NCBI GenBank assembly: GCA_964348985.1
Contig: CAYGEQ010000005.1
Location: 1 to 25,126, forward strand
Direction of reading: 5' to 3'
Origin: an uncultured Gammaproteobacteria bacterium
GTDB taxonomy: Bacteria; Patescibacteriota; Patescibacteriia; UBA9934
DNA length: 25,126 bases
Position 1 is the stretch's first letter, and every line of letters starts with the position of its first letter. The notes beneath the pieces are model-generated. The model searched no databases. It was not told the DNA's origin and saw nothing but the letters and a program-made list of their open reading frames with translations. Made by a program: the position numbers and the translations under genes. Below, piece after piece: positions 2,743-23,439 of the stretch.

Positions 2743-2770
2743 ATTATGCCCCAGGCTACCGGGGAGTCAA
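2743..2770 (-). promoter_or_regulatory. Sigma70-type promoter for greA-lysS-ribL-like-serS
   Basis: Minus strand TTGACT-N16-CATAAT, overlapping the last codons of mrdA. Confidence 0.55.
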
Positions 2771-4681
2771 GTACCACTCGAGAATCTCCCTGGCGATAGG
2801 TACGGCTAATGACAAGTCTCCGCCCTCTTCTACTATGACCGCAATGGTAATAGTTGGGTCATCATATGGTGCGAAGCCGGTAAACCAGGAGTGAGGAACC
2901 TTATTCGAATTCCATTGGGCAGTACCCGTCTTACCCGCTGCGGGCACCGGCAAGGATTGTAGAGAGGTAGCTGTGCCGTTGGTCACCGTAGTGCGCATAG
3001 CTTCCTGAATCACTGCTTGGATTTGCTCGTCCGCTACCCGGACTGCCGTTGCCCCCTGACCGACCACCAAGTGAGGGGTGATGAGCAGGCCACCGTTAGC
3101 CACCACGGCCGTAGCTCTAGCCATCTGCAAGGGCGTAACTAAGATGTCGCCTTGGCCAATAGAAGCATTATACGTATCACCCAGAAACCAGTCCTCATTT
3201 TTTGTTTCTTTTTTCCATTCCTTGCTAGGCAAGAAGCCAAGCGCTTCGCCTGGTAAATCAATCCCGGTTTTAGCGCCTAATCCGAAGGTTCTGGCCCAGG
3301 TCATAAGTTTATCTATCCCCAAACCCCTAAATGATTCATTACCGCCACCAATCAAATAAAAATAGGTATTAACTGAGTCGGCGATCGCGTGATATACGTT
3401 CGTCATGCCATGACCACCGCCTTTCCAATCAGGAAAAAACCTGTCCCCTAACATTAATCCGCCTCCAGAAAAAAATGTGGTCTGCGGAGTCACAATGCCC
3501 TCCTCTAAAGCTGCGGTGGCAAAGAGCGGCTTAATGGTTGAACCAGCCGGGTATGTCCCAGCGGTAGCCCGTGGAAAGAGTGGCGCGTTCGGGTCATTTA
3601 CTAGAGCTGAATATTCAGTACCCGAGATACCTTTGGAAAATTTATTGGCGTCATAAGCCGGGTAGGACACCAGAGCTAACACTTCCCCATTACGTGGATC
3701 AAGCGCTACCACCGCTGCTTTTTTTACGGGCCTATTTTGTAAGTACTTGTTTAGCACTAATTCTGAATAGGCTTGTAACCGAGCGTCAATAGTTAAGGTC
3801 AGATTTTGACCATCAACCGGATCTTTGTGCGATAAAATTCTTAAGGGCGCACCTTTGGCGTTTACCTCAAACACATCCTCTCCATATTGGCCGCGTAGCT
3901 CAACCTCATGTGAGGATTCCACACCCTGCTTGCCAATGGCATCAAACGAACGGTAACCGTCTTCACGCAGGGCGTCATATTCTTCCGCGCTAACGCCACC
4001 GGTATAACCTAGGACATGCGATAAAGAAGGAATGGCATCCGTAGGATAGCCACGCTCCTCAGCTAGCTCAATAGCTAATCCTGGGAGTTCCTGACCAGAA
4101 CCCATATAGGCCATAGCCTTCTCATAAGGGATATCTTTGGCGTACAAAATCTCTTCACTGTCATGAGCTAACTGATCAGCCAACAGCAACTCTTCAAACG
4201 AGAGCTCTAACATTTCCGAAGCTGCTCTTAGGATGTCCTGCCTGGTAGTCACTAGCGGCCAAGTCCAGCCAGGCACTGCCCGTGGGAGCAGTGATTGGTA
4301 CCCCACTAATCTAAAGGAGGGCAGGTTTGAGGCCAGAGGAATGCCGTGCCGATCAGTTAAGATGCCTCGGTGCGAAGGGATGGCGTGAATCCTTAATCTG
4401 TTAGATTCAGCCACGGCTCTATAGTGTCCGCCGTTCACAATTTGCAAAAAAGCACTCTTGCCCAAAAAAATAGTGACCACTAGTAAATAGGCAGCTAAAC
4501 CAAGCAGAAACCGTTGGTGGCTAATGGGCGGTTTAACGGTTGATCTAGACAGAGATGATCTAGGCTCAGATAACACTTCGTCAACGTTGCTACGCGAAGA
4601 CATGCCCCAATCACTGGAGCTTTCCCCAAGGCCAAAAAGGTTAGGTCCGCTATCTTGGCGCCTGGACTTCATAAGTATCAT
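2756..4681 (-). CDS. mrdA: Penicillin-binding protein 2 (class B PBP); alternative start at 4672
   Basis: TM anchor, then RGILTDRHG dimerisation domain, GYTG, GKQGVE; catalytic STIK (SxxK), SVN (SxN) and KTG; directly downstream of mreBCD. Confidence 0.95.
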   Translation of the reverse strand: MILMKSRRQDSGPNLFGLGESSSDWGMSSRSNVDEVLSEPRSSLSRSTVKPPISHQRFLLGLAAYLLVVTIFLGKSAFLQIVNGGHYRAVAESNRLRIHAIPSHRGILTDRHGIPLASNLPSFRLVGYQSLLPRAVPGWTWPLVTTRQDILRAASEMLELSFEELLLADQLAHDSEEILYAKDIPYEKAMAYMGSGQELPGLAIELAEERGYPTDAIPSLSHVLGYTGGVSAEEYDALREDGYRSFDAIGKQGVESSHEVELRGQYGEDVFEVNAKGAPLRILSHKDPVDGQNLTLTIDARLQAYSELVLNKYLQNRPVKKAAVVALDPRNGEVLALVSYPAYDANKFSKGISGTEYSALVNDPNAPLFPRATAGTYPAGSTIKPLFATAALEEGIVTPQTTFFSGGGLMLGDRFFPDWKGGGHGMTNVYHAIADSVNTYFYLIGGGNESFRGLGIDKLMTWARTFGLGAKTGIDLPGEALGFLPSKEWKKETKNEDWFLGDTYNASIGQGDILVTPLQMARATAVVANGGLLITPHLVVGQGATAVRVADEQIQAVIQEAMRTTVTNGTATSLQSLPVPAAGKTGTAQWNSNKVPHSWFTGFAPYDDPTITIAVIVEEGGDLSLAVPIAREILEWYLTPR

Positions 4682-5165
4682 TCTTGGCTACAAACCGGCG
4701 ACCAAACGCGTGCAAGGCTCGCTCTAAGAACAGCGAGGCGATGACGGTCAGGAGCGAGGTCACCGCCGTCAGAAAAAGGAACATCCACGGAAAAAATCCC
4801 GGTACGCGCACCACTACCCCAAAACGTAACGCGAAGTACAGCAGACTGGTAACAAGCACCACTCCAGCAAAGGCTGCAATGGAACGACGCGCAAACACCC
4901 GTGAGATCAAGCCATAAACAATCACTAAGCTAGCTAAAACTACCAGCAAATGGGCGGCTGGGGCTAAGCCGACAGCTACCGTAGCTAAACCGGTTACTAG
5001 TAAAAAAGCGCCACCCAACTCAAACGACACCCGATGCATGATGGCTAAAGAAAAAATAAAGGCCCAAGGAATTAAGCGCCAGGGTAAAGGCAAAACCGCC
5101 CACACTGTTTCAGTGAAGAAGAAGGTCAGAAGTAACGTCGCGGCTGATAAAAATCCGAGGATCAT
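4650..5165 (-). CDS. mreD: Multi-TM membrane protein, MreD-like by position
   Basis: About 5 hydrophobic segments, located between mreC and mrdA. Sequence motifs are weak, so the call rests mostly on synteny. Confidence 0.65.
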   Translation of the reverse strand: MILGFLSAATLLLTFFFTETVWAVLPLPWRLIPWAFIFSLAIMHRVSFELGGAFLLVTGLATVAVGLAPAAHLLVVLASLVIVYGLISRVFARRSIAAFAGVVLVTSLLYFALRFGVVVRVPGFFPWMFLFLTAVTSLLTVIASLFLERALHAFGRRFVAKNDTYEVQAPR

Positions 5166-5167
5166 AA

Positions 5168-5971
5168 TCAGGGAGAGATGGGCGGGAGAATAAGCACGTT
5201 AGACCACTCGAGCGGGTCTGCAAACGGTTCTAAGAGGGCGCTCTTGAAAGGAGCGCTGGCGTGATTAATAACTTCGGTGACGGTGCCCAGCAACAACCCC
5301 TCGGTGATGCGTCCGTCTAATCCGCTGGTGGTCACAATGTCGCCGCGGGCCACATCCGCCTCACGTGGAATAAAGTTCAGCCCAATCACCGCGCCGTTAC
5401 GTCCCTCAGCTAAACCAATGGTGCGCTTTTTTCCAATAATAGTAGCTGGAATCCGACTGTCCGAACCGGTCAATAAAGTTACTATACTGGTGTGTTCTTT
5501 AACTGCAGTCACCGTGCCTAGGACTACCCCCTGTCCAACTACCACCACTGAGCCTATGACCACGTTATCGGCTGATCCTCGGTCAAGAATTACCCTCATG
5601 GGGTCCTCCGGTAATGACCTGGCAATTAATCTAGCCGCCGTGCCGGCCACTGCTACGTGCTCCGAGTAGCCCAAGGATTCCCGTAGTTCAGCATTCTCAT
5701 CTTTTAGGCGCTCAAATTCCACGGCGTCTCTAGCTAGCGCTAACCCGTCATCCTGACACATTTGAAGTCTAACTGACAAAGAATTTTCCGATTCAAAAAA
5801 TCTAGCCACCGCTCTGGCTATGCCTGCTCCGCCCCGAGCGAGGACCGCCTCGCCAGATCTGATGGCTGGACCAATGCCAGGTAGTTGCTTAGCTAGAAAA
5901 AATACACCCACGAAAGCCACTAGTATGACCACTGGCTTAAGACGCGCAAGGATGGTTGGCTGCTCAATCAC
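5168..5971 (-). CDS. mreC: Rod shape-determining protein MreC (GTG start)
   Basis: TM segment, coiled coil LKDENAELRESL, ILDRGS, GDIVTTSGLDG, LLLGTV; follows mreB. Confidence 0.92.
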   Translation of the reverse strand: MIEQPTILARLKPVVILVAFVGVFFLAKQLPGIGPAIRSGEAVLARGGAGIARAVARFFESENSLSVRLQMCQDDGLALARDAVEFERLKDENAELRESLGYSEHVAVAGTAARLIARSLPEDPMRVILDRGSADNVVIGSVVVVGQGVVLGTVTAVKEHTSIVTLLTGSDSRIPATIIGKKRTIGLAEGRNGAVIGLNFIPREADVARGDIVTTSGLDGRITEGLLLGTVTEVINHASAPFKSALLEPFADPLEWSNVLILPPISP

Positions 5972-5976
5972 AGCGT

Positions 5977-7020
5977 TTAGTTATTAGCGGTGGTTGGTAG
6001 AGAGACATCAGTCAAGAATTCTGGCCTATCAAGCAAAGCTCCAGCGCCCCTAACCGTACACGTCATTGGGTCATCAGCAATTCTCACCGGAATATCTGTT
6101 TCTCTAGCAATTGTTTTATCTATCCCCTTTAACAGCGCACCGCCACCCGCTAAAACCAGGCCACGTTCATAAATATCAGCCACAATTTCCGGGGGAGTAA
6201 CTTCAATAGTCGCCTTGATGTTTTCGACTATAGTCTGGACGTTACGATAAATAGCTTCACGAATCTGGGCGTCCGTCACTATGACCTGTCTTGGCAAACC
6301 ATTAATGAGATAGCGCCCACGCATTTCCATTTCCATGGGCGAACCTAAATCCATAGACGTACCGATTCGCCATTTCACTTCTTCCGCCACGCGTTCACCA
6401 ATCAACAAGTTAAAGACGTCCCGGGCGTACTGAGTGATACTCTTCGTCATTTCATCGCCAGCTACGGTCAGGGACTTCCAGGTAACAATACCGCCCAGCG
6501 CCACCACCGCAATTTCCGTAGTTCCCCCACCAATGTCAACAATCATACTGCCAACAGAATCCTCAACCGGTAGACCCGCGCCCAGCGCCGCGGCGAGTGG
6601 CGCTTCTACTAAAAACGCCTCACGAGCGCCAGCTGATAAGGCGGCATCTTCCACGGCTTTACGCTCAACCTCCGTAATCTCCAGTGGAACGGTCATGACC
6701 ATGCGAGGCCTGGGAACGAGAGTGAACGTGTCCTCATGTACTTTGTCCACAAAGTACTTCAACATTTTTTCAGTCACTTCAAAATCTGAAATTACGCCCT
6801 TAGTCAGTGGCCGAGTGGTCACAATGTGTGGCGGCGTCTTGCCTAACATGTCCTTGGCCGAGGTGCCAACAGCGAGAATGTGATTAGTTCTGGTATTCAC
6901 AGCCACGATGGACGGCTCGTGCATCACGATTCCGCGCTCACGTACAAAAACTCGGGTGTTTGAGGTCCCGAGGTCAATAGCAATATCTTTAGAAAACCGA
7001 CCAAAAATTCGGCTGAACAT
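5977..7020 (-). CDS. mreB: Actin homologue MreB (likely start ATG 7020), with Ala at the catalytic Glu position
   Basis: N-terminal amphipathic MFSRIFGRF, IDLGTSNT, EPSIVA, RPLTKGVISDF, VDIGGGTTE, LAGGGALL, ADDPMTC. Confidence 0.97.
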   Translation of the reverse strand: MFSRIFGRFSKDIAIDLGTSNTRVFVRERGIVMHEPSIVAVNTRTNHILAVGTSAKDMLGKTPPHIVTTRPLTKGVISDFEVTEKMLKYFVDKVHEDTFTLVPRPRMVMTVPLEITEVERKAVEDAALSAGAREAFLVEAPLAAALGAGLPVEDSVGSMIVDIGGGTTEIAVVALGGIVTWKSLTVAGDEMTKSITQYARDVFNLLIGERVAEEVKWRIGTSMDLGSPMEMEMRGRYLINGLPRQVIVTDAQIREAIYRNVQTIVENIKATIEVTPPEIVADIYERGLVLAGGGALLKGIDKTIARETDIPVRIADDPMTCTVRGAGALLDRPEFLTDVSLPTTANN

Positions 7021-7081
7021 AAGCGTCCGCTGGCATTTCATCACGGGTATGTAACTCGAACAAGGCGCCCTGTGGAGTGAA

Positions 7082-7486
7082 CTAAGCCTCTGACGGCGGT
7101 TCTAACGTTTTGCGGTCTTGAAAAATTATGAAGAAAAACTCTAAGAGCGCTAATAAGGCAATCAACACCATGAGCACGGGCGTAGAAAACAACCCAATAC
7201 TCATCAGGATCAAAGACAATAAAATAAGCGCTCCAAAAAATACCCCTTGTCTAAATGATCTAATGACGGCCAAGCTAGCCCCAGCTTCTGGAAACCTACC
7301 AGACCGCATAACAGTGCCAATGATGGTCAGCAACCCAACTAACCCACTGCCAAGGGTAACGTAAAAAATGATCAAAGCTAACGGACCAGCCGTGAATGGA
7401 TCAATAGACAGCAAAGTCACCACCCAAGCCGAGAGAGCAATGGCCGTACCTAGCGCCAGAATAACAATATATTGCCGAAGGTTCAT
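7082..7486 (-). CDS. Hypothetical 4-TM membrane protein (likely start ATG 7486)
   Basis: MNLRQYIV... with four hydrophobic helices and motifs IDP, FY, SFRQG, LE. The longer ORF-track start overlaps dciA. Confidence 0.75.
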   Translation of the reverse strand: MNLRQYIVILALGTAIALSAWVVTLLSIDPFTAGPLALIIFYVTLGSGLVGLLTIIGTVMRSGRFPEAGASLAVIRSFRQGVFFGALILLSLILMSIGLFSTPVLMVLIALLALLEFFFIIFQDRKTLEPPSEA

Positions 7487-7496
7487 AGCTAGCTCA

Positions 7497-7808
7497 TTAT
7501 ATATCCATAAACGCCTCCGGCCTAAGCTTAGCCACACAAACCAAGGATAGAGAGGGAAAATCTTCCTCAAGTGATCTGGCCAACTGAGGGCCTATGACAT
7601 CCGCCTCATAACGCGCCGTGGGGTTCTGGCAAGCAATCGTCAGCTCCTTGTCTTTGAAACTTAAAACCTTCATGTCGCGTTGATACTCCGCTGGGATGAG
7701 GGCAAATAATTTATCGTTAGCCTTCCTGACTACTTGAGCAGCCAAAACCTGCTTACCTATCCCATGGCGAGCGAGAATTGAATCTGTAAGACTACCGAAT
7801 GTTTTCAT
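7497..7808 (-). CDS. dciA: DciA/DUF721-family replicative helicase loader-like protein
   Basis: 103 aa; N-terminal 'GSLTDSILARHGI' and 'VLSFKDKELTIACQNPTARYE' fit the DciA KH-like core as I recall it. Confidence 0.65.
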   Translation of the reverse strand: MKTFGSLTDSILARHGIGKQVLAAQVVRKANDKLFALIPAEYQRDMKVLSFKDKELTIACQNPTARYEADVIGPQLARSLEEDFPSLSLVCVAKLRPEAFMDI

Positions 7809-7820
7809 AGTTCTTTCCTG

Positions 7821-7996
7821 AGTCGTCCACTCGTGGCTACGTCCTCGCTCGTGGAGTCGTGTAGAGGTTCGCGCGCACTCCTAACACTCGCGAGAACGTA
7901 CCCACTCGTCGACGAGGCCATTCGGGGGTGCGAGTGTTAGGAGCGTGGCACATTCTTGAGCGACTCCACGAGCAGACACGAATGACCAAGTCGACT
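7821..7996. other. ~176-nt irregular long hairpin with a central bubble (candidate structured ncRNA or palindromic repeat)
   Basis: Perfect 13-bp helix 7847-7859/7961-7973, perfect 14-bp helix 7878-7891/7930-7943, terminal AGTCG/CGACT at 7821-7825/7992-7996, and a 12-bp palindrome CTCGTCGACGAG at 7905-7916. Confidence 0.8.
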
Positions 7997-10971
7997 TATA
8001 GCTGCGCGAACGGACAGATATCTTTAAAGTCACAATACTTACAGGTAAACGGACCGGGCTTAGGTTCGAACGTACTGGTTCTAATGGCGCCGACCGTATC
8101 TCTAATCTCGTCCAAGAGCTTCTCCTTGTCTTTGTCGGTCGGGGCGAAACTCACGGTGTCGTTTGTCTCGACATAATAGTACGTCAGCGCCTTCACGACG
8201 AGGGGTGGATTAAAGCACTGCTCAGCCGCTAGGGCGTAGAGGACTAACTGACGGCGGGCATCCCAGTCAAGTGTCTCCTTAGCACGACCGGTCTTGTAGT
8301 CGATAATTTCAACTCCACCCTCCACGGCGTCTATTCTGTCTATTCGCCCCTTCATGAGGATGTCGCCTATCTTGAGTGTGAAGCCAGCTTCTAACAAGAA
8401 TGGCTTCGGTTGATTCTCCACCACCTTGCGGTGAAAAACCTTAAGTGCGTCGACCCCCTGTTGCCTGTATTCCTCGCGCGTTTTGGAATCTGGATACCAT
8501 TCGTCAATGAACGTAGCGGCGTACATGTCGAGTAATTGACGTTCCGTAGGAACCACACGCGTAGCCGTAAGGTCGCTGCTTGCAGCGGCCGAAAACAGGT
8601 CAACCTGTACGCCGGTTTCATCCGGCAACATAGCCTTTACGAATTTCTCGAGCGTTAAGTGCATGCTTTGGCCGAAGCTGAACTGATGACGGCCGAAGGT
8701 AGGAATTTTCAGAATGTGGGCGTACTTGTACTGGAGCGGGCAAGAACCGAAAGCTGCAACTTGGGAGAAAGAAAATTTGGTTGGCAATCTAATTTCCGCC
8801 GCGCCGGAACTGGTGATGATTTTGCCGCGTTCGTCCAGGATGTCGTCTGTAGTTGTTTTCTTTTTCTTTTCTGTTGGTTGAACCTCGTAGCCGAGCTCAG
8901 CGAGGAATCTAGATGGCTTCCTTTTCCGAGAACCGCCATAATCCTCAGCCGAGCACAAATACAGCCCCTCCTTGGCCCGCGTGATAGCTACGTAGAACAA
9001 GCGTCGCTCCTCGGCCACGTGATCATCAAGCGCCGCGTCCACTTTTCTCACGAGCGTTGGGGGGAGCGGTAATTGGTCTGATCGAGAGACCGAGGGAAAT
9101 CTCTGCTCAATCATATTGACCACGAACACGTACTTAAACTCCAATCCCTTGGCGGCATGAATAGTCATGACGTTCACCACGTCTGGGCCTTCTTCATTAT
9201 CGGCCTTTAAGCCCCCAGCCTCCCCTGCCTCGCGCTCAGCATCAAACTCCTCAAGAAAGCCCGGCAAGAGCTTATTGTCGGGACTGGCGATAACATAACG
9301 CTTTAGACGAGCTAGAAAACCTTCAAGATGCCTGAACACTTCTTGCTGATCGGCCTCAGGAAGAATCTTAAGGTCGCCGAGCAGACCAGTGTCCTTGAGC
9401 ACTGACACGAACAGCTCAGTCACTGGTAGACGTTTAGCCTTCTCGCGTAGTTCCTCAATGATCCGCGTAATCTCCATGACCCGGTTACGGCCGTCGAGCG
9501 AGAGACCGATGGCCTGCGTCATTGAGCGCATGCCGTCAATAATCGCTCCGCCGGATTTACGGCGAACATAACGCATGAGTTCAGACAGATCTGACTCAGT
9601 CAGACCCAAACGCGGGTGGCTAAGGACCCGGTACATGGCTGGCGAGTGATACGGTTCACAGACCGCACGCATGTACGCCATCGAATCTAAAATGATGGGC
9701 TTCGTATAGAGCCCAGACATGGCCACAAAGTGGTACGGCACGCCAGCACGCTCAAGGGCCTCCAGAAACGGATCCGCGGCATCATTCGACCGCGCCAAAA
9801 TGACAAAGTCGTTCCAATCCCCTTCCCCATTTTCATGTTTAAGAATGATTTCATTGACCACAGATTCGACTTCCTCGGTGGCGGTAGCGCAGTGAAGATG
9901 ATGAACTAGACCATTGGTCTCGGTATGCGATTGCAGCTTCTTCGAAAGGCCCTCGCTAGCCTCTAGCCGATGCGGATTATTTGTTTGGATCAACTTGTAG
10001 GCTGCGTCTAGAATCGTTGCTCCGCTTCTATAGTTTCTCGTCAGCACCACGCGGGCTGCGTCTGGAAAATCTGTGCGGAATTCTAGAATGTTAGCGAGTG
10101 CGGCTCCGCGAAACTTATAAATAGCCTGGTCATCATCCCCCACTACCGTGATATTTCGGGGAGCGTGAACGAGGATCTTTACGAGTTCGTTTTGAATGCT
10201 GTTTGTATCTTGGAATTCGTCGACAATGATGTACTTGAAGCGCTTTTTGTATTCCTCCAGGACGTTAGGCCGCGTCTTGAATAACTCGAGCGTCAATAGA
10301 AGCAGACCGCCAAAGTCTATGGCATGCTGTTCTGATAATAATTTTTCATACATGGCGTAGGCACTAGAAAGTTCCTGCCATTTCTGAAGTTCTAGCTTGC
10401 TCTCATCCGGCATAGCAGCCAAACCCTCCGGCGAACCTCCGGACATAGTCGCCGTCAACTCATTAACCGCAACCAAATACTTCTCCGGCGTGATACCTTC
10501 ATCTTTAGCGCGGGAAAAATGCTGAAGCAATTGTCTCAGGAACTTGGTCGGCGAACCGCGTGGCTTGAAATAGTCCAGCTCGAAACGGTCTATATTCCGG
10601 CGCATCAAGAGCCAGCAGTCAACCTCCGTGTACATTTTGAAATCTGATGGAATGCCAATATGAATCCCGTGCTCACGCAATACTTTCTCGCAAAAAGAGT
10701 GAAACGTGGAAATAGAGAGGTCCAGGTAACCCATCGGCAGTAAACGATCAACACGCTCCTCCATCTCGTTCGCCGCCTTGTCCGTAAACGTCAGCGCGAG
10801 AATCTCATTTGGCTCGGCGAGTTTTTGTTCAATCAACCAGGCGATGCGCTTAGTAACCACTGTGGTCTTACCAGTACCCGCGCCAGCAATAATCATGAGA
10901 GGTCCTTCTCCATGGGTCACGGCTGCCAATTGTTCCGGGTTCAAGCCTTCCAGTAACGGGTTTGCGTCCAT
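7996..10971 (-). CDS. SF1A UvrD/PcrA-like helicase fused to a C-terminal PD-(D/E)XK nuclease with 4 Cys (AddA/AdnAB-like architecture)
   Basis: LNPEQ, AGAGTGKT, VDEFQD, GDDDQAIYKFRGA, NYRS, TIHAAKGLEF, EERRLFYVAITRAK; nuclease SCPLQYKY, GRIDRID, IIDYKTG, QLVLY, CKYCDFKDIC. Confidence 0.93.
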   Translation of the reverse strand: MDANPLLEGLNPEQLAAVTHGEGPLMIIAGAGTGKTTVVTKRIAWLIEQKLAEPNEILALTFTDKAANEMEERVDRLLPMGYLDLSISTFHSFCEKVLREHGIHIGIPSDFKMYTEVDCWLLMRRNIDRFELDYFKPRGSPTKFLRQLLQHFSRAKDEGITPEKYLVAVNELTATMSGGSPEGLAAMPDESKLELQKWQELSSAYAMYEKLLSEQHAIDFGGLLLLTLELFKTRPNVLEEYKKRFKYIIVDEFQDTNSIQNELVKILVHAPRNITVVGDDDQAIYKFRGAALANILEFRTDFPDAARVVLTRNYRSGATILDAAYKLIQTNNPHRLEASEGLSKKLQSHTETNGLVHHLHCATATEEVESVVNEIILKHENGEGDWNDFVILARSNDAADPFLEALERAGVPYHFVAMSGLYTKPIILDSMAYMRAVCEPYHSPAMYRVLSHPRLGLTESDLSELMRYVRRKSGGAIIDGMRSMTQAIGLSLDGRNRVMEITRIIEELREKAKRLPVTELFVSVLKDTGLLGDLKILPEADQQEVFRHLEGFLARLKRYVIASPDNKLLPGFLEEFDAEREAGEAGGLKADNEEGPDVVNVMTIHAAKGLEFKYVFVVNMIEQRFPSVSRSDQLPLPPTLVRKVDAALDDHVAEERRLFYVAITRAKEGLYLCSAEDYGGSRKRKPSRFLAELGYEVQPTEKKKKTTTDDILDERGKIITSSGAAEIRLPTKFSFSQVAAFGSCPLQYKYAHILKIPTFGRHQFSFGQSMHLTLEKFVKAMLPDETGVQVDLFSAAASSDLTATRVVPTERQLLDMYAATFIDEWYPDSKTREEYRQQGVDALKVFHRKVVENQPKPFLLEAGFTLKIGDILMKGRIDRIDAVEGGVEIIDYKTGRAKETLDWDARRQLVLYALAAEQCFNPPLVVKALTYYYVETNDTVSFAPTDKDKEKLLDEIRDTVGAIRTSTFEPKPGPFTCKYCDFKDICPFAQL

Positions 10972-11368: not shown

Positions 11369-11410
11369 AAAAAGGGCCCCCACGCATGCGCGCAGGGGCT
11401 CTTCTTTATT
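11369..11410. terminator. Bidirectional intrinsic terminator between the orphan ORF and atpC
   Basis: AAAAAGGGCCCC ... GGGGCTCTT followed by CTTTATTT; A-tract on the left and T-rich tract on the right, between convergent genes. Confidence 0.75.
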
Positions 11411-11847
11411 TATGATGGTAAGTTTCTCTGTTTGCCTTTCCCCTTCAGCGCCACGCGATAACGTGCTAGTTCACGCTCCATGTGGGCGGCGGCGTCAGCG
11501 TAACTGACAGCGTCTTTGCCGCGAGCAGCAGTAAGCGCGTCTTCGGCCAGCTTTTTAGCCGTCTCAATTGCGCCGAGCTCAAGCTCACTTGAGTGCTCTG
11601 CAGTCTCCGCCAGAATGAGGATGTTGTTCCCTGGTTCAATCTTGAGCAAACCGCCAGCCACCGCTAACAGCTCTTGGTTCTCACCAGAACCTACACGCAT
11701 CTCTCCGGGCATGAGCAAAGTCGCCAAGGGAATATGCCCTGGGAGAATGGTGATCTCGCCATCTTCCGTCATCACGGTCAAAGAAGGCGTCTCGCCTTCA
11801 GCAACCACTCGGTCGGGAGTAACTAATTTGTATTTAAGCGTTGCCAC
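11410..11847 (-). CDS. atpC: ATP synthase F1 epsilon subunit (GTG start)
   Basis: LVTPDR, GEITILPGHIPL, GGLLKI, ILAETAE; last gene of the atp operon. Confidence 0.95.
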   Translation of the reverse strand: MATLKYKLVTPDRVVAEGETPSLTVMTEDGEITILPGHIPLATLLMPGEMRVGSGENQELLAVAGGLLKIEPGNNILILAETAEHSSELELGAIETAKKLAEDALTAARGKDAVSYADAAAHMERELARYRVALKGKGKQRNLPS

Positions 11848-11848
11848 A

Positions 11849-13219
<1,371 letters not shown>

Positions 13220-14098
13220 TTATTCTAGGGCTGCCTTACCTGAGCTGATTTCTGCAATCTCCTGGGTGATACCCGCCTGACGGGCTTGGTTGTAAGTGAA
13301 GGTCAGGCCATCAAGCATGTCTTTTGCCGCGTCAGAAGCGTTCTTCATGGCGAGCATACGTGCAGCGTGTTCACTCGCCCCTGATTCAAGCAGCGACTGC
13401 CAAAGCATGGTTCGCGCCACGGCCGGGAGCATGCGGTCGAACACTTCTTTGGGTGAAGGCTCGAAGAGAATTTCTTCCGAGGTCGGGGTCGACCCATGCG
13501 TCGACCCATCCTGATCGAGCTTCATGGGAAGCAGGTCAAGCAGTTCAGGCTTTTGGGATATGCCGGAGATGAAATGCGTGAAGCCGAGCACCACTTTCTT
13601 ATATTCGCCGTTGATGAAAGCCTCTAGCGCCAGACGAGCAACCGGCAGAAGGTCCGTATAGGCCGGGTTATTTGAGAGAGCGCCGAACCGAGCAATAACC
13701 CTCACCCCTGCCCTGTCCATAGCATCCCCGCCCTTCTTGCCTACGGCCACCACATCAACTGACTCAAGGCCCGTAGTCTTGACGAACTCAAGGGCCAGAC
13801 GCGTCATGTTCACGTTTAGACCACCAGCTAAGCCTCGGTCTGAAGAGAAAATGACGAGCAGTGTCTTAGTGGCCTTTGGGTCTCCTGTTAGGAGGATGTT
13901 CTTTAAGCTGGCCGGAGCACTAGCCGCCGCTGAACGCATAGCTTCCGCCACCGTTTCCGCGTAGGTGCGGCTCCTTAAGGCAGACTGAACTGCGCGGCGC
14001 ATCTTAGATGCAGCCACCAGTTCCATAGCCTTCGTAATCTTCCGTGTGTTCTTCACGGACTTGATCCGAAGCTTGATTGCCTTTTTGGACTGAGCCAT
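13220..14098 (-). CDS. atpG: ATP synthase F1 gamma subunit
   Basis: KITKAMELVAASK, SDRGLAG, SEHAARM, NQARQAGITQEIAEI. Confidence 0.98.
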   Translation of the reverse strand: MAQSKKAIKLRIKSVKNTRKITKAMELVAASKMRRAVQSALRSRTYAETVAEAMRSAAASAPASLKNILLTGDPKATKTLLVIFSSDRGLAGGLNVNMTRLALEFVKTTGLESVDVVAVGKKGGDAMDRAGVRVIARFGALSNNPAYTDLLPVARLALEAFINGEYKKVVLGFTHFISGISQKPELLDLLPMKLDQDGSTHGSTPTSEEILFEPSPKEVFDRMLPAVARTMLWQSLLESGASEHAARMLAMKNASDAAKDMLDGLTFTYNQARQAGITQEIAEISSGKAALE

Positions 14099-14103
14099 AA
14101 CAA

Positions 14104-15612
14104 TTAAGATTGCTTGAAGTTCTCAATAAAACTCTTGAGCAACTTTTCAAGCTCGGCCTTAGTTTCAGCCACCAAATCTTTCTTCTCAGTAATATCCTTA
14201 AGTACGTTCGCCCCAACGCCATGCATGAGCGCCAAGAACTCTTCCTCGAAACGCAAGATGTCGGCTACTGGAATAGAATCAAGCAACCCGTTGTTCAGGG
14301 CGTAAACCACTACTGCTTGTTCAGCAAAAGACATTGGTGAGTACTGCTTCTGCTTCATGAGTTCCATGGAGCGGCGGCCGCGTTCAATCTGCTTCTTAGT
14401 AGCTTCGTCCAAGTCTGTAGCAAACTGAGCAAAGGCTTCAAGTTCGCGGAACTGAGCGAGGTCTACCTTGAGCGTCTTCGCTACGTTCTTAATAGCCTTG
14501 GTCTGAGCAGCCGAACCCACACGGGACACGGAGAGACCAATGTTCAGAGCTGGGCGCTGACCCTTGTAGAAAAGATCTGACTCAAGGTAAATCTGACCAT
14601 CCGTAATAGAAATTACGTTGGTTGGAATGTAGGCTGCCACATCACCTCCTTGAGTTTCAATAATCGGAAGTGCGGTGATAGATCCCCCACCGTTCTCCGC
14701 GTTCACGCGAGCTGAACGCTCAAGCAAACGAGAATGCAAGTAGAAAACGTCACCGGGATAAGCCTCGCGTCCTGGTGGACGGCGGAGCAAGAGAGAGATT
14801 TCACGGTAAGCCCAAGCGTGCTTAGAAAGATCATCGTAAACAATCAGCACGTCTTCGCCCTTAGCCATGAAGTATTCAGCAATAGCACAGCCGGAGTACG
14901 GAGCGATGTAAAGCATGGCGGCAGGGTCACTGGCGCCGGCTAGCACGATAGTGGTGTATTCCATGGCACCGGCCTTTTCTAGTCTGGCGCGGATCTGGGC
15001 CACCTTTGATTCTTTCTGACCAATTGCGACGTACACGCATTTCACGTTACCGCCCTTCTGGTTCAAAATAGTATCAATAGCAATAGCCGTCTTACCGGTT
15101 TGACGGTCGCCAATAATCAGCTCACGCTGACCACGGCCAATTGGGATCAAAGCATCAATGGCCTTGATACCCGTCTGCATAGGTACGCCCACGGCCTCAC
15201 GAGCCATAACACCAGGAGCGATTTTCTCGACCGGCACGAACGTAGTGTTAGTGACAGCGCCCTTACCGTCTACCGGGTTGCCAAGCGCATCAACTACTCG
15301 ACCAATAATTCCGTCCCCAACTGGAATGGAAAGAATACGGCCAGTAGCCTTAACGGTGTCACCGGCCTTAGTAGTTGGGCTGGCGGTTAGCAAAATTGCA
15401 CCCGTGGTTTCCTCCTCAAGGTTAAGGGCGATACCAAAAGTTCCGCCACCAAAATCAAGCATTTCTTGGCTCATGACGTTAGACAGTCCGCTCATGCGGG
15501 CCACGCCGTCAGAGAAAGAAACAATTGTTCCTACTCGCTCTTCTTCAACGCCGGACTTAAAGGCGGCTACTTGGGCGCGCAATGATTCAATGATATCCAT
15601 TTTTTTGGCCAT
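14104..15612 (-). CDS. atpA: ATP synthase F1 alpha subunit
   Basis: [43 protein letters not shown]. Confidence 0.99.
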
Positions 15613-15613
15613 A

Positions 15614-15997
15614 CTATGCTAACAAGGTGTTCTTCAGTCTTTGTAAGGCGCCAATAATGGAGCCGTCCAGTCGCCTGTCATCTATCCGGATCACTGCCCC
15701 ACCCATTAACCGCTCGTCTACTCGCTCAATCAGTTCGGCACCATTCACTAAATCTTCCAGTTGTTTTTTAGCCGCCTTGGACAGTTCGTGAGCCGAGAGA
15801 ACAGTCACCCTGCTGGCCCCGAACTTGTTTCGCCAAGCTGAGTGAATTTCTTTTTCCAACTCGCGCCAGCGCCCAAGCAAATTTCGTTCCTGTAAAAAGG
15901 CGATTATTTTAACCATCTCCTTCTCAACATCAGCCGGCTTCAGCTCCGCTAGTTCATCAACAATCTTTTGGGCCAGAGGTTTCAAGCTCTTCTTCAT
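15614..15997 (-). CDS. atpH: ATP synthase delta subunit, short form (127 aa)
   Basis: C-terminal VTVLSAHEL ... [22 protein letters not shown]; located between atpF and atpA. Confidence 0.9.
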
Positions 15998-15998
15998 A

Positions 15999-16550
15999 TT
16001 AAGTAAGCTTGCGGACCACTTCTTCGGCCATTGATTTCGACTTCTTCTCGTCCATGTCGGTCGAGATAATTTTAGCCGCTGCCTTCACGGCAATTTCAAC
16101 CAGATCTTTTCTGGCTTCAATCATCATAGCGGCATGTTCGTCCTTAAGCTGTTCCTTCCCCTTCTGGATGACCCGCTCAACTTCACGCTTAGCGGCCTCT
16201 ATCATCTCAACTTTCCGCTCTTCAGAATCAACGGCGGCCTTAGCATGAAGAGCCTGAGCGTCCTTCTGAGCCTGTGCTAGAAGTTCAGCACGTTCTTTTT
16301 CATTAGCTAAAACCCGGCGCTCAATCTCTTGAGCGTCTTTAAGACTCTGTTCAATCCGAGCTTCTCGATCACCTAGCAACTTAAGAATCGGTTTGTAAGC
16401 GAAAAGCCACAACACCCCTAGAACAATGAGGAAGTTAATTAGCTGACCAGCAAAGAGCGCAGGTTGTACGCCAAACGTGTGGGCTATACCCGCTACGCCA
16501 GACGGAGCTTCTTCGGAATGTGTTGTGGTTTCGGCCATAAAGAGATCCAT
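15999..16550 (-). CDS. atpF: ATP synthase F0 b subunit (start 16550 or 16538)
   Basis: GQLINFLIVLGVLWLFAYKPILKLLGDREARI followed by a long charged coiled coil. Confidence 0.96.
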   Translation of the reverse strand: MDLFMAETTTHSEEAPSGVAGIAHTFGVQPALFAGQLINFLIVLGVLWLFAYKPILKLLGDREARIEQSLKDAQEIERRVLANEKERAELLAQAQKDAQALHAKAAVDSEERKVEMIEAAKREVERVIQKGKEQLKDEHAAMMIEARKDLVEIAVKAAAKIISTDMDEKKSKSMAEEVVRKLT

Positions 16551-16551
16551 G

Positions 16552-16636
16552 AGGTGTCAGGTTTCAGGTTGCGGTACTTCTACGGAATCCAATTCAGTAA
16601 GTCACAATCCTTCACCTGACACCTGAAACCTGGTGG
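16552..16636. repeat. Heptamer-armed inverted-repeat element, copy 1 (atpE-atpF spacer)
   Basis: Left arm AGGTGTC-AGGTTTC-AGGTT, right arm ACCTGAC-ACCTGAA-ACCTGGTGG; 16591-16636 matches 18969-19014 at 44/46. Confidence 0.9.
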
Positions 16637-16638
16637 TC

Positions 16639-16857
16639 TTAGAGGGTGAAGGCAATGATCAAGGCGTAAATAGCGATAGCTTCAGCAAAAGCCATACCGA
16701 GCAACATTGGCACGAAAAGCTTACCAGCGGCGTCTGGGTTACGGCCGATGTTGTTCATAGCTGCGTAACCAATCAAACCAATGCTGATAGCTGGGGCAAA
16801 GCCACCGGCCGTAATAGCGAATGCCTTAGCGAGAAGTACCATGGTTTCTGCGTTCAT
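16639..16857 (-). CDS. atpE: ATP synthase F0 c subunit, predicted H+-coupled
   Basis: Two TM helices, loop GRNPD, ion-binding AEAIAIY; lacks the Na+ ligands Gln32/Ser66/Thr67 (Ilyobacter numbering). Confidence 0.97.
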   Translation of the reverse strand: MNAETMVLLAKAFAITAGGFAPAISIGLIGYAAMNNIGRNPDAAGKLFVPMLLGMAFAEAIAIYALIIAFTL

Positions 16858-16912
16858 AACGTATACATTTAATGGTTATAACTTACGGCTTAGAGACTAG
16901 GGCATCTTCCCT

Positions 16913-16940
16913 AACCTGCAACCCGCAACCTGCAACCGCT
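16913..16940. repeat. Tandem heptamer array (AACCTGC-like x4) in the atpB-atpE spacer
   Basis: AACCTGC AACCCGC AACCTGC AACCGCT; a small hairpin TAGGG/CCCTA lies next to it (16898-16913). Confidence 0.8.
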
Positions 16941-16944
16941 CTGA

Positions 16945-17751
16945 TTAGTGCGCCTTCGCCTCATGATGTTCTTCATCCCCATGTCCATGAGAGTCAGTGG
17001 CCACAGTGAGGAAGGCCAAGACTAGGATGGAAAATACCGTGGCCTGGATGGCGCCCACAAGAATTTCCAAGAACATAAACGGCACCGGCACCACAAACGA
17101 GAACATGCTCATCATCACGCCAATCAAAATTTCGCCGGCGAAGACGTTACCGAACAAACGTAGCGACAGCGAAACTACCTTAGCAAACTCACTAACAATT
17201 TCAATCAAGCCTACCCCAAACTCAACAATCGCTACCGCAATAGCCGTTGGCCCTTTAGGGATAGCCATGATAATGCCCTTAATGTTTACGAACTTACTGC
17301 CGTAATTAATGAGGCCAGTTGCCTGGATACCCGCAATCTGGACAACAGCCACGGAAAATACCGCAATGGCCAAGGTGAAGTTTAGGTCAGCGGCGGCGGG
17401 GCGAAGCAAAGGCAAAAAATGGTCACCACTCCAACCAATGGTGCCGGTGCCCGGCAAAAGGCCCATCCAGTTGTTAACCAAGATGTACAAAAACAAGGTA
17501 GCGACTACGGGGAAAAACATGAGCGCCCGCTTACGGTCCCCGGTCACTTTTTGCACTTCAACCAGTAAGCCTTCAATAATCGCCTCAATGAAATTATGAA
17601 TGCCGTGCGGCACTAAAGTCTTACGGCGCGAGGCGACAAAAGCCACCACACAAAAAAACGCCACCGAAATCCATGCATTGAGCAAAGAATTCGTGACGGT
17701 AAACTGACCAATATTGAACAACGGCTCAGCTGCCAGAGCGGCGAAGCTCAT
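16945..17751 (-). CDS. atpB: ATP synthase F0 a subunit (likely start ATG 17751)
   Basis: AAEPLF, NNWMGLLPG, ADLNFTLA, SLRLFGNVFAGE (stator Arg), IQATVF; His-rich C-tail. Confidence 0.97.
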   Translation of the reverse strand: MSFAALAAEPLFNIGQFTVTNSLLNAWISVAFFCVVAFVASRRKTLVPHGIHNFIEAIIEGLLVEVQKVTGDRKRALMFFPVVATLFLYILVNNWMGLLPGTGTIGWSGDHFLPLLRPAAADLNFTLAIAVFSVAVVQIAGIQATGLINYGSKFVNIKGIIMAIPKGPTAIAVAIVEFGVGLIEIVSEFAKVVSLSLRLFGNVFAGEILIGVMMSMFSFVVPVPFMFLEILVGAIQATVFSILVLAFLTVATDSHGHGDEEHHEAKAH

Positions 17752-17986
17752 CTTGAGTCCGGTTGAGTTGTTGGAACGCTCGGCCATACTGGGAGATCTT
17801 TTTCCAGAGAACTATGGCGGTGAGCCCGAAGGTCAACGCCAGAATGGCGAGAAAGATGGTGTCCGGAAGTTGGAACGCAGTCTTGATCACGAACGCCGCA
17901 ACTGCCGGAACCAGAATGGTCCCGAGCACGTCAACGAATGCTCGTAGCGCGAATACGTAATATTTCCGCACATCATCCCCTGCCAT
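17726..17986 (-). CDS. Small 2-TM protein, AtpZ/AtpI(gene 1)-like
   Basis: Two hydrophobic helices; first gene after the atp promoter, overlapping atpB. The call is mostly positional. Confidence 0.6.
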   Translation of the reverse strand: MAGDDVRKYYVFALRAFVDVLGTILVPAVAAFVIKTAFQLPDTIFLAILALTFGLTAIVLWKKISQYGRAFQQLNRTQDELRRSGS

Positions 17987-20998: not shown

Positions 20999-21670
20999 TT
21001 AACGCTTGCCGACAATAACCACAAACTCGCCCTTCATACTTGTCTCCTTCAGGGCCTTTAGAACCTCTACAGCCGTGCCTCTATATATTGTCTCATGTAA
21101 CTTGGTCAGCTCACGGCAAACCACAAGAGGCTTAGGGCAGGACGCGAGGGACTCGAGAGCCTTTTCGATCCGGTGAGTTGCTTCGTAAAATACTTGTACA
21201 TGGTCAGCCTCAAGGACTTCACGGAAGAAGGTCTCTCTCCCCTTCTTATGGGGCGGGAAACCCAGGAACGTAAAACGGTCAATCGGCATACCGGAAATTG
21301 AGAGTGCGGCAATCACGGCGCTCGCTCCGGGGATTGGTGTGACCGTAATTCCGCTCGCAACTGCATCGGCCACTAGGAATCCGCCAGGGTCTGAAATGGC
21401 CGGCGTACCTGCGTCCGTCACCAGAGCAATTTTCTTACCCTCGACCAGCATCTCTACAATGTGTTTCCGCTTCAAAGGATCAGTGTGTTCGTGGAACGAC
21501 ATGGTGGACGGCGTAATCCCTAAGTGTGCCAGCAATCGACTCGTCACGCGTGTGTCCTCGCACAGCACCAGATCCACACTCGCCAAAATTTCCTTAGCGC
21601 GCGCTGAAATATCACCGAGATTTCCTATCGGTGTGGCGACTATGTAAAGGTGGCCGTTATTCTGAGACAT
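20999..21670 (-). CDS. rsmI: 16S rRNA (cytidine1402-2'-O)-methyltransferase
   Basis: VATPIGNL, CEDTR, DAGTPAISDPG, IPGASA, RELTKLHE. Confidence 0.96.
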   Translation of the reverse strand: MSQNNGHLYIVATPIGNLGDISARAKEILASVDLVLCEDTRVTSRLLAHLGITPSTMSFHEHTDPLKRKHIVEMLVEGKKIALVTDAGTPAISDPGGFLVADAVASGITVTPIPGASAVIAALSISGMPIDRFTFLGFPPHKKGRETFFREVLEADHVQVFYEATHRIEKALESLASCPKPLVVCRELTKLHETIYRGTAVEVLKALKETSMKGEFVVIVGKR

Positions 21671-22862
21671 TGATGGTGGTTACAGGTAGCTCCGCGCCGT
21701 CCTCCGCGGCCTCTGGCTGGACGAACAACTCATTCCCCAAAAGACGCGCCGTTGGAAAATGAGACACGTAAGCATGAGCGAAATATCTAGCTGTTGGCTG
21801 GATTTCCATTAGCTGTGTGCCCTTCAGCTCGCCTTGAATTGATAGACCGTCAGTCGTCCACCTGGAAGAGGTTTCTAGATCAGTGATGACGTTGCCCTCT
21901 CGCTTGAAGTTCAAGATCTGACCGTCAACGGTTGAATTGAAAACTTTGATCAGATTGTCCTCATTAACTAAGGCTACGTAGGAGGTCGAGCCGGTGACAT
22001 AGTTTGGCCCCTCCACAAAAGATAGAAACTTAGCCGTGGCGCCCACATGCTCATTTTCAATCACTAGGTCGTAAACCAATTCTTTATTAGCTAAGCGAGT
22101 ATCAGTTTTGTTAGTGGGGAAAAACAATGAGTTGTTGTTCTCATAATTACCGTAAGGATGCCGCCTATAATCCCGGCTATACCCCGTTTCAGTAGACAAC
22201 ACCTCCCCATTTGGATAAGCCTTTTTCCAAGCGTCCCAAGTCATAACGGCGCTTGGATAACGCTGCAGCGAAGTGGCGTGATCATGTCCCGCTACTAAAG
22301 CACCGCTAGCCTGATCCCAAAGACTAGTGGAAGCAGAGTCGTAAAATACAGGACAGTTGTTGTAAACCTGGCCGTTGTCCCCAAATGTTCTAGCTATACC
22401 GTCCTCCACTACTCGGTCATAGACCACCGCACTCCCGCACAGTGGCGAATACGAAACCAAAAGCTCACGTCCACCAAATTTATCATTAACAATCTGATGC
22501 CAGTTTAATATTTGGAACGAATAAAAACGGTGCTGACCGTTCACCTCCACATCAATACCTGCCACCGTATCATCCAACACTTCATCAGCAGTTGCCATGG
22601 AAACATAGACCGGCATATTTATGGCTGGCACGCCGTCCTTGCCTAACCCGTTCCCATAAAGCTCATCCGGTGGCACAAAAAAATTAGTGCCATTTTTCAT
22701 GACCGGCTGACTGTAGGTGCCGCCCATCACATCCGGCCACCGTCCCTCCGCTGGCATATCAGCTAACCGCCAAGCCCGCACTCCAACCAAGGCGCCCAGC
22801 ACTAGAAGCCCGACCACCACTGGGAGTATTTTTTTGAAATTCTTATGCATAGGAATGGGCAT
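21657..22862 (-). CDS. DUF3179-like membrane-anchored extracytoplasmic protein (likely start 22862 or 22850)
   Basis: N-terminal TM, GKDGVPAINMP, ILNWHQIVND, YSPLCGS, SLWDQASG, MTWDAWKKAYP, TGYSRDY. The ORF-track start 22931 would overlap ahpC. Confidence 0.75.
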   Translation of the reverse strand: MPIPMHKNFKKILPVVVGLLVLGALVGVRAWRLADMPAEGRWPDVMGGTYSQPVMKNGTNFFVPPDELYGNGLGKDGVPAINMPVYVSMATADEVLDDTVAGIDVEVNGQHRFYSFQILNWHQIVNDKFGGRELLVSYSPLCGSAVVYDRVVEDGIARTFGDNGQVYNNCPVFYDSASTSLWDQASGALVAGHDHATSLQRYPSAVMTWDAWKKAYPNGEVLSTETGYSRDYRRHPYGNYENNNSLFFPTNKTDTRLANKELVYDLVIENEHVGATAKFLSFVEGPNYVTGSTSYVALVNEDNLIKVFNSTVDGQILNFKREGNVITDLETSSRWTTDGLSIQGELKGTQLMEIQPTARYFAHAYVSHFPTARLLGNELFVQPEAAEDGAELPVTTINVSE

Positions 22863-22914
22863 AGAGTAATAGGTAGAGCAAAAAGAGTAAAGATGTGATA
22901 ATCTGCTCCCACCT

Positions 22915-23439
22915 ATGATCTCCATAAACAAACCGGCACCAAGTTTTGAGAATGTTACCTCTTACACAAAGGGTGAATTCACTAAAACCAGCCTATCAGA
23001 CTACAAAGGCACTTGGCTTATTTTATTCTTTTATCCACGGGATTTTACCTTCATCTGTCCTACGGAAATTAAAGGCTTCGCTAAGATGGAAGCCGAGTTC
23101 GCTAAGTTCAACGCCAAAGTATTAGGCGCCTCCACTGACTCTGAATGGTCACACAAGAACTGGTTTGAAAAAGACTTACCAGAAGTCACCTACCCTATCT
23201 TGGCCGACACCACCCAGAAAGTCGCTCGTGATTACGGAGTCTTGAACGAGGACGACGGCAGTGCTGACCGCGGCCTCTTCATCATTGATCCAGAGGGCGT
23301 GGTGAAGTATGCGGTCATATCCGCTGGCTCCGTTGGCCGCTCGGTCAAAGAAGTTTTGAGAGTTCTCGAAGCACTCCAGTCCGGCGAGCTCTGCCCGGTA
23401 GAATGGGAACCAGGCGAAAAGACTCTCGGTAAGGCTTAG
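22915..23439 (+). CDS. ahpC: Typical 2-Cys peroxiredoxin (AhpC/Prx1)
   Basis: FYPRDFTFICPTE (peroxidatic Cys), STDSEWSH, DRGLFIIDP, GRSVKEVLR, LCPVEW (resolving Cys). No GGLG or YF motifs. Confidence 0.96.
   Translation: MISINKPAPSFENVTSYTKGEFTKTSLSDYKGTWLILFFYPRDFTFICPTEIKGFAKMEAEFAKFNAKVLGASTDSEWSHKNWFEKDLPEVTYPILADTTQKVARDYGVLNEDDGSADRGLFIIDPEGVVKYAVISAGSVGRSVKEVLRVLEALQSGELCPVEWEPGEKTLGKA

Follow-up and report, generated by a model that had tools for sequence, protein, structure and literature searches.

An operon-linked MreB of a Patescibacteria bacterium with alanine at the position of the water-positioning glutamate

Introduction

What MreB gains from ATP hydrolysis within the Rod complex is a matter of continuing debate. 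In the filament state of Caulobacter crescentus MreB (CcMreB), E140 and T167 hold the attacking in-line water, and A22 and MP265 bind E140 (PMC4051119). The pair T167/E169 has been proposed to abstract a proton from the water, and the corresponding motif, E...T-X-[D/E], is present in 95.8% of 4832 non-Spiroplasma MreBs (PMC9597168); the same work equates Q137 of actin with E140 of CcMreB. This article concerns MreB1, a natural MreB that carries alanine (Ala140) where the water-positioning glutamate is expected. Its gene lies on the reverse strand of a stretch of 25,126 nucleotides, hereafter the window, which spans positions 1 to 25,126 of contig CAYGEQ010000005.1 (assembly GCA_964348985.1), deposited as an uncultured Gammaproteobacteria bacterium and placed by its GTDB lineage in the Patescibacteriota.

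Much has been learned from the same substitution made in the laboratory. In Geobacillus stearothermophilus MreB (GsMreB), E136A lowers the ATPase 55-fold while ATP is still bound, with a higher melting temperature; the polymers are indistinguishable from wild type and disassemble much more slowly under limiting ATP, and the equivalent Bacillus subtilis mutant has minor shape defects only (bioRxiv 10.64898/2026.07.23.740262). ScMreB5 E134A is ATPase-deficient and forms filaments (PMC9195046). With a chromosomal mreB E143A allele, Escherichia coli grows as viable rods that resist A22 and contain longer polymers (10.1101/226290; PMC11098131); E143 is absent from the E. coli alanine-scan paper. 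According to recent laboratory work, assembly needs the binding of ATP, not its hydrolysis, and hydrolysis only speeds turnover.

Nature offers a precedent as well. Spiroplasma MreB3, which reads Asp/Lys/Ser at the three motif positions, releases inorganic phosphate very slowly and still forms double filaments (PMC9597168), and a further report describes one Spiroplasma MreB isoform regulating the polymerisation of another (PMC12337190). A natural glutamate-less MreB and engineered E-to-A mutants are, then, already known; the first-pass annotation of the window, made from the sequence alone, had named E-to-A as the standard hydrolysis-deficient mutant and MreB3 as a natural exception, and the published record bears out both. 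As for the Candidate Phyla Radiation (CPR)/Patescibacteria, a literature search found no paper specific to MreB active-site variation, nor did the literature searched hold a description of the two-MreB arrangement reported below.

Alanine 140 in an otherwise complete MreB

The translation of 5977-7020 on the reverse strand includes FLVEAPLAAALGAG. Read from the Met at 7020, GAA (6606-6604) encodes E139, GCG (6603-6601) encodes A140 and CCA encodes P141. In phmmer alignments, A140 falls opposite the second Glu of the GsMreB TIEEP motif (136, in the numbering of 7ZPT) and opposite the Glu of the CcMreB LIDEP motif (E140), and in the alignments to three solved MreBs the tens of residues that flank A140 on each side contain no gap. 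The first-pass annotation had placed the alanine at this codon and taken the residue as the equivalent of the water-positioning glutamate; both points hold.

Could the preceding Glu139 have taken over the catalytic position? The first-pass annotation had raised this as a possibility that would overturn its reading. Glu139 is not a relocated catalytic residue, because canonical MreBs also have E or D there (EEP or DEP). To judge this and other columns, a clade set was formed from the 120 closest proteins of a 5.8-billion-sequence collection, named at source as Patescibacteria or 'Candidatus Uhrbacteria', which with the window protein makes 121; the 150 nearest cluster representatives at 50% identity served as a wider sample. 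Column 139 is E in 119 of the 121 clade members and E or D in 123 of the 150 representatives. In the structural model, residue 139 ends the strand 134-139 and residue 140 begins the helix 140-147, a boundary that, together with the gap-free alignment, excludes a displaced Glu.

The remainder of the protein leaves no ambiguity: MreB1 is a complete, elongasome-linked MreB of a Patescibacteria bacterium. It scores 426.5 bits against PF06723 (cut-off 27) and exceeds the curated cut-offs of NF010539 (452.7 versus 293) and TIGR00904 (428.8 versus 365.75). Its AlphaFold2 model (predicted local distance difference test, pLDDT, 91.6; predicted template modelling score, pTM, 0.88) has the four-subdomain fold of actin and Hsp70 and superposes on the MreB structures from Thermotoga maritima, G. 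stearothermophilus and C. crescentus, with template modelling scores of 0.86-0.93 and root-mean-square deviations of 1.6-2.4 Å to 1JCF, 7ZPT, 8AZG and the 4CZ entries (Foldseek). Over the full length it is 46-49% identical to the canonical solved MreBs, and it bears an amphipathic N-terminal helix, like the MreBs of Gram-negative bacteria. The ATG at 7020 was taken as the start, an in-frame GTG at 7044 being judged less likely; the homologues, some of them named 'Candidatus Uhrbacteria' at source, are 346-352 aa long and initiate at the same Met.

The nucleotide-binding loops are all in place, namely DLGT of phosphate-1, DIGGG of phosphate-2 and GGG of the adenosine motif (Table 1), and D16, L17, G18 and T19 are unchanged in all 121 clade members. 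The hydrolysis motif E...T-X-[D/E] is incomplete: its first position is Ala140, and T167-T168-E169 is present. This absence bears on activity, not on homology, since the motif is a property of the majority of MreBs and does not define membership of the family.

Two further departures from the usual motifs, VPLE for VPxG and GRYL for GRDL, had also been listed by the first-pass annotation together with the intact DLGTSNT, DIGGGTTE and GGGALL, and all five read so in the translation. Neither departure co-varies with the loss of the glutamate. Column 114 is E in 117 of the 121 clade members, including those that retain E140 (it is G in 93 of the 150 representatives), and Tyr237 is a marker of a subclade, column 237 reading D in 68 members, Y in 50 and H in 3, with 3 parsimony changes.

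Fixation of Ala140 in the close relatives

Is the alanine real? A GAG-to-GCG change needs one base only, so the first-pass annotation had warned of a sequencing error or a strain-level single-nucleotide polymorphism, and singletons of this kind do occur: the protein P0258 reads AAP, and the other members of its 2262-member actinobacterial cluster read EEP. The relatives of MreB1 dispose of this concern. Its 24 nearest homologues, with identities of 81% or more, all have Ala140, and none shows the Glu that would have spoken for an error. Over the 120 closest homologues the column reads A in 59, S in 34, E in 17, N in 4, T in 3, and V, G and D in one each. Relatives at genus and family level, from independent assemblies, encode the alanine by GCG, GCA, GCT and GCC, all four of its codons.

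Nonsynonymous divergence (dN) from the window gene is 0.03-0.2, and synonymous divergence (dS) is saturated (above 1.3 or not computable), which gives a dN/dS ratio (omega) of about 0.02-0.05 that, with most pairwise dS values saturated, is a rough bound only. The four Ala codons among the relatives, the saturated dS and the omega of about 0.02-0.05 together show that Ala140 has persisted while synonymous sites changed many times, and that purifying selection on the protein is strong. The same low omega, together with the open frame, the invariant binding motifs and the conserved operon, argues against an incipient pseudogene. Ala140 is the long-fixed state of a genus-level clade, neither an error nor a private polymorphism, and an artefact of any of these kinds is so improbable that it need hardly be entertained.

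Relaxation of site 140 within the order

The clade as a whole tells a less uniform story about this position. When the 120 closest homologues are placed on a tree, column 140 undergoes 21 parsimony changes among 8 states, against 4 for the median column; it ranks 35th of 347 and so lies within the 10% most variable columns of the MreB1 clade. By comparison, D16, G18, T19, G164, G166 and G292 show no change (nor does L17), and E139, D162 and T168 one each. Among 39 genomes of the order, position 140 of the operon-type MreB has changed at least 10 times, with the states E, A, S, N, G and C. In this order site 140 has lost its constraint, and small residues (A, S, N, T, G, C) are admitted there.

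The other half of the hydrolysis motif has begun to follow in places. In some sublineages T167 is eroded to M, V, I, K, A or S and E169 to Q (e.g., ESP...GGGMTQ), and within one genus-level subclade a series from ESP..TTQ through ENP..VTQ to ESP..MTQ is plausible. Decay of T167 and E169 after the loss of E140 is what is expected if hydrolysis is dispensable. T167-T-E169 is intact in 88 of the 103 clade members that lack Glu140, and the window protein lacks the Glu only.

Distribution outside the order

Is the loss of the glutamate a general trait of the ultrasmall cells of the CPR? In a phylum-wide sample, 78 of 101 Patescibacteria genomes have MreB, nearly always in two copies, one an mreC-linked LIEEP type and the other an I-I-K-E-P type. 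Outside the order, 29 of the sampled genomes have one MreB recognisable as operon-type (LIEEP-like); in all 29 this copy has Glu140, and mreC is detectable beside it in 19. Six further genomes outside the order were ambiguous or had no mreC evidence. The Glu of these 29 genomes speaks against a general trait of ultrasmall CPR cells. The first-pass annotation had imagined a static scaffold suited to an ultrasmall cell, an idea that finds no support of its own: cells are just as small elsewhere in the phylum, where the operon-type copies sampled keep the Glu.

In the second-type MreB outside the order the motif is mostly KEP. IIKAP, an E-to-A change in the other paralogue, was read in two genomes of one other Patescibacteria family (locus L136 in genome G060 and L146 in G112), and LIKQP in one genome (G124).

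Over the 150 cluster representatives, position 140 reads E in 101, Q in 20, A in 7, S in 6, G in 5, N, K and D in 3 each, and T in 1. Deviation at this single site is thus commoner than the 4.2% for the whole motif in PMC9597168, although representatives over-weight divergent sequences. In a 62-member cluster from the Oscillospiraceae (P0380/P0419) the motif is LIEAP and DIGGGTTE is unaltered, the gene being part of a maf-mreB-mreC-mreD-pbp2 operon (L159:5001-6035, on a Logan contig of SRR31562802); here E-to-A arose independently. The motif xAP was also read in Dethiobacter and in one unnamed MreB cluster. Tabulated over the Patescibacteria paralogues, as the first-pass annotation had advised, position 140 is relaxed over one order (A/S/N/T/G/C/V/E), and E-to-A recurs independently elsewhere.

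A second MreB without the glutamate

The first-pass annotation had also asked for a second, canonical MreB. A second, full-length MreB, MreB2, is indeed encoded outside the window in the same assembly (773 kb, 75 contigs, 87% complete) and matches MreB1 in profile score (434.8 bits), yet it is not canonical. Its motifs are DLGTTTV, IIKQP, with Gln140, and EIGGGTSE, in which Glu162 replaces the phosphate-2 Asp, so that it is excluded as a compensating Glu-type MreB; no Glu-type MreB was found in the 87%-complete assembly. Among the 120 closest homologues of MreB2, which are 86-100% identical to it, position 140 is Gln in 119 and Lys in one, and Glu162 is present in all 120. The E-to-Q change happened once, with D162 to E, on the branch to the family of the window, and all 25 of 25 genomes there retain it; in other parts of the order MreB2 reads KEP/DIGGG.

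MreB was found in all 40 relatives sampled from the order, in two copies in 39 of them. In a tree of 79 MreBs from 41 genomes of the order with 10 outgroup representatives, MreB1 and MreB2 are reciprocally monophyletic (99 and 100 in the Shimodaira-Hasegawa-like approximate likelihood ratio test, SH-aLRT). Across genomes, the loss in MreB1 shows no consistent coupling to the E-to-Q change in MreB2.

The neighbourhood of mreB2 is conserved in its own way. A DUF4012 (PF13196) gene lies directly upstream of mreB2 and overlaps it in 15 of 15 inspected loci; in the present genome it encodes a protein of about 496 aa (L001:2474-3964, reverse strand). On the same contig, mreB2 is flanked by short runs of N, which appear as X in translations and are due to masking by the data provider, not to assembly gaps. 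The conserved pair hints that the function of DUF4012 is tied to the MreB filament.

The operon and its surroundings

The first-pass annotation had described an intact mreBCD-mrdA operon. Its mreC and pbp2 are supported by profile matches downstream of mreB1; for mreD, by contrast, the assignment comes from position and topology only, as the 171-aa product, in which several hydrophobic segments were seen, has no Pfam or NCBIfam match. In the relatives, mreC lies downstream of the operon-type MreB in 14 of 14 inspected loci. Two SEDS genes are present elsewhere in the assembly.

Table 1. Coordinates of the mre genes, of the motifs and residues of MreB1, and of the second MreB gene
Feature	Coordinates	Strand	Remarks
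mreB1, operon-linked MreB	5977..7020	-	347 aa, P0001; PF06723, NF010539, TIGR00904, AlphaFold2 model
Phosphate-1 motif DLGTSNT, residues 16-22	6955..6975	-	intact
Glu114, VPLE (111-114) versus VPxG	6679..6681	-	clade-wide substitution
Glu139 codon GAA	6604..6606	-	ordinary acidic neighbour, E/D in canonical MreBs
Ala140 codon GCG	6601..6603	-	position of water-positioning catalytic Glu: CcMreB E140, EcMreB (E. coli) E143, GsMreB E136
Phosphate-2 motif DIGGGTTE, residues 162-169	6514..6537	-	intact, with T167-X-E169 half of hydrolysis motif
Tyr237, GRYL versus GRDL	6310..6312	-	subclade-level substitution
Adenosine motif GGGALL, residues 292-297	6130..6147	-	intact
mreC	5168..5971	-	PF04085 109 bits; TIGR00219 92.8 versus cut-off 92.75; begins 5 bases past mreB stop
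mreD-position open reading frame (ORF), 171-aa polytopic membrane protein	4650..5165	-	resembles MreD in position, size and hydrophobicity only
pbp2/mrdA transpeptidase	2756..4681	-	PF03717 and PF00905; TIGR03423 526.8 bits versus 455; overlaps mreD-like ORF
mreB2, P0121, 334 aa, without N-terminal helix	G000:C7:3317-4291(-) = L001:1480-2484(-)	-	outside window; 434.8 bits

A RodZ-like gene is found on another contig (L088:1447-2010, forward strand; G000:C37), directly downstream of ftsK and cut by the contig end; its product has an HTH_25 domain (68 bits), one transmembrane segment and an extracellular part, and a search of the assembly for the RodZ_C domain gave no match. In E. coli, E143A partly suppresses the deletion of rodZ. 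The idea that MreB1 might be a natural analogue of this suppressor in a lineage without RodZ is unsupported, given the RodZ-like gene with HTH_25 and a transmembrane segment.

On the reverse strand of the window, the overlapping ORFs 7082-7570 and 7497-7808, immediately upstream of mreB1, have no Pfam or NCBIfam match. Upstream of the mre operon, 7996-10971 encodes a 991-aa fusion of a UvrD-type helicase with a PD-(D/E)XK nuclease (AddA/PcrA-like), and 11410-17787 holds an F-type ATP synthase operon with subunits a, b, alpha, gamma and beta by Pfam. A 424-aa DUF3179 protein (21657-22931) lies between a leucyl aminopeptidase (M17) gene and a small ORF.

Interpretation and rival explanations

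What would such a protein do? The reading that we prefer, with a probability of about 0.7, is that MreB1 binds ATP, polymerises and hydrolyses slowly, giving long-lived filaments competent for guidance of the Rod complex. With Ala in place of the water-positioning Glu, Mg-ATP would still be bound through the intact loops, and the protein would polymerise on the membrane as antiparallel double filaments. Hydrolysis would be tens of times slower than in a canonical MreB and filament turnover slow in consequence; the filaments would nonetheless serve as a curvature-sensing track for RodA-PBP2, whose movement is powered by wall synthesis and not by MreB turnover. This picture, which the first-pass annotation had sketched as an ATP-binding, slow-hydrolysing MreB with stable filaments, fits the behaviour of the same substitution in other MreBs and owes its strength to that analogy.

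Several observations weigh against it. T167 and E169 are intact in MreB1, which leaves room for residual or compensated hydrolysis, and MreB1 carries the clade-wide Glu114. ScMreB5 E134A binds liposomes less, assembles with a delay and bundles less (PMC9195046), side effects by which "stable filaments" may be too simple a description. Finally, at 87% completeness the assembly might hide a third MreB; complete relatives have exactly two.

With an artefact set aside, two other explanations deserve weighing. MreB1 could serve as a structural or adaptor subunit that does not hydrolyse ATP and needs MreB2, the Gln140/Glu162 site of the latter supplying turnover to a common polymer. Two MreB paralogues are present in nearly every sampled MreB-bearing genome of the phylum, they are reciprocally monophyletic in the order, and MreB2 is far the more conserved of the two, with short branches and the high identity among its 120 best matches given above; its Gln is the residue of actin (Q137, PMC9597168), and the Spiroplasma isoform that regulates another (PMC12337190) offers a parallel. 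Such a partnership sits uneasily with the separate conserved neighbourhoods, mreC-linked for one paralogue and DUF4012-linked for the other, and with the distribution of the residues: MreB1 is non-Glu in families with a Glu-type MreB2, and some genomes of family f1, where MreB2 has Gln, keep Glu in MreB1. We regard a division of labour of this kind as unlikely, though it overlaps with slow hydrolysis by MreB1 and the two do not exclude each other.

Less likely still is a near-normal rate of hydrolysis, with the water positioned and activated by T167/E169, by another residue such as Glu114 or, in the relatives, by the side chain of Ser or Asn. The T-T-E triplet kept by the window protein and by most non-Glu clade members would suit this, as would the preference for small or polar residues at site 140, which hints at a steric requirement, and the near invariance of Glu114. 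E-to-A alone, however, cuts the ATPase of GsMreB 55-fold with T and E intact in a protein 49% identical to MreB1 (bioRxiv 10.64898/2026.07.23.740262), and the ATPase of ScMreB5 E134A is strongly lowered too (PMC9195046). Glu114 also occurs in members with E140, without co-variation, and several sublineages later lose both T167 and E169, which is unexpected if these residues carried catalysis.

A bolder extension of the slow-hydrolysis reading takes both paralogues together. In most genomes of the family of the window the catalytic Glu is in neither of them, and the elongasome may have long run without the canonical hydrolysis chemistry of MreB, MreB1 being essentially non-hydrolysing and MreB2 having converged on a site of the actin Gln137 type. 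This is a tentative proposal, possible but on balance doubtful. If true, nature itself would have demonstrated that Rod function can dispense with Glu-driven turnover, and the paralogues would have specialised into static and dynamic filaments.

The surprise of the finding is limited: both E. coli and B. subtilis tolerate E-to-A, Spiroplasma MreB3 sets a precedent, and the change recurs in the Oscillospiraceae. Even so, the long-ago loss of the Glu in an operon-linked MreB, the rest of which is under strong selection, is natural support for the view that assembly needs ATP binding and that hydrolysis only speeds turnover. What makes the case useful is the graded natural series, as the lineage offers Ala, Ser, Asn and Glu orthologues and a Gln paralogue for tests, and in the phylum-wide two-MreB arrangement with its separate conserved neighbourhoods.

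Comparison with known systems

Set beside the canonical MreBs of C. crescentus (4CZE-4CZM), T. maritima (1JCE-1JCG), G. stearothermophilus (7ZPT/8AZG) and E. coli, MreB1 shares the fold, the phosphate-1, phosphate-2 and adenosine motifs, and the gene order mreB-mreC-mreD-pbp2. It differs from them in having Ala for the water-positioning Glu, Glu114 for Gly and Tyr237 for Asp, and in being accompanied by a second MreB that is also without the Glu.

The laboratory mutants, GsMreB and BsMreB (B. subtilis) E136A, ScMreB5 E134A and EcMreB E143A, carry a substitution identical to that of MreB1, at the same residue. In them, however, it is a single change in a background adapted to Glu, whereas the alanine of MreB1 is ancient, kept by selection, and found in a clade where the site is freely variable. 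A natural counterpart of this exact change is the Oscillospiraceae MreB, which has the same E-to-A at the same residue, an intact DIGGGTTE and an mreBCD-pbp2 operon, in a different phylum (Firmicutes).

Spiroplasma MreB3 (7E1C/7E1G) is, like MreB1, a natural MreB without the hydrolysis motif that coexists with MreB paralogues. MreB1 is not of the MreB3 type: MreB3 changes all three motif positions (Asp/Lys/Ser), while MreB1 changes only the first and keeps T-T-E (Ala/Thr/Glu), and MreB1 is 31% identical to 7E1C/7E1G versus 46-49% to the canonical MreBs. The settings also differ, Spiroplasma being a wall-less swimmer whose MreB3 has no link to mreCD-pbp2. Because the identity is only about 31%, the two proteins have independent origins; by analogy, MreB1 probably works as MreB3 does, with slow hydrolysis.

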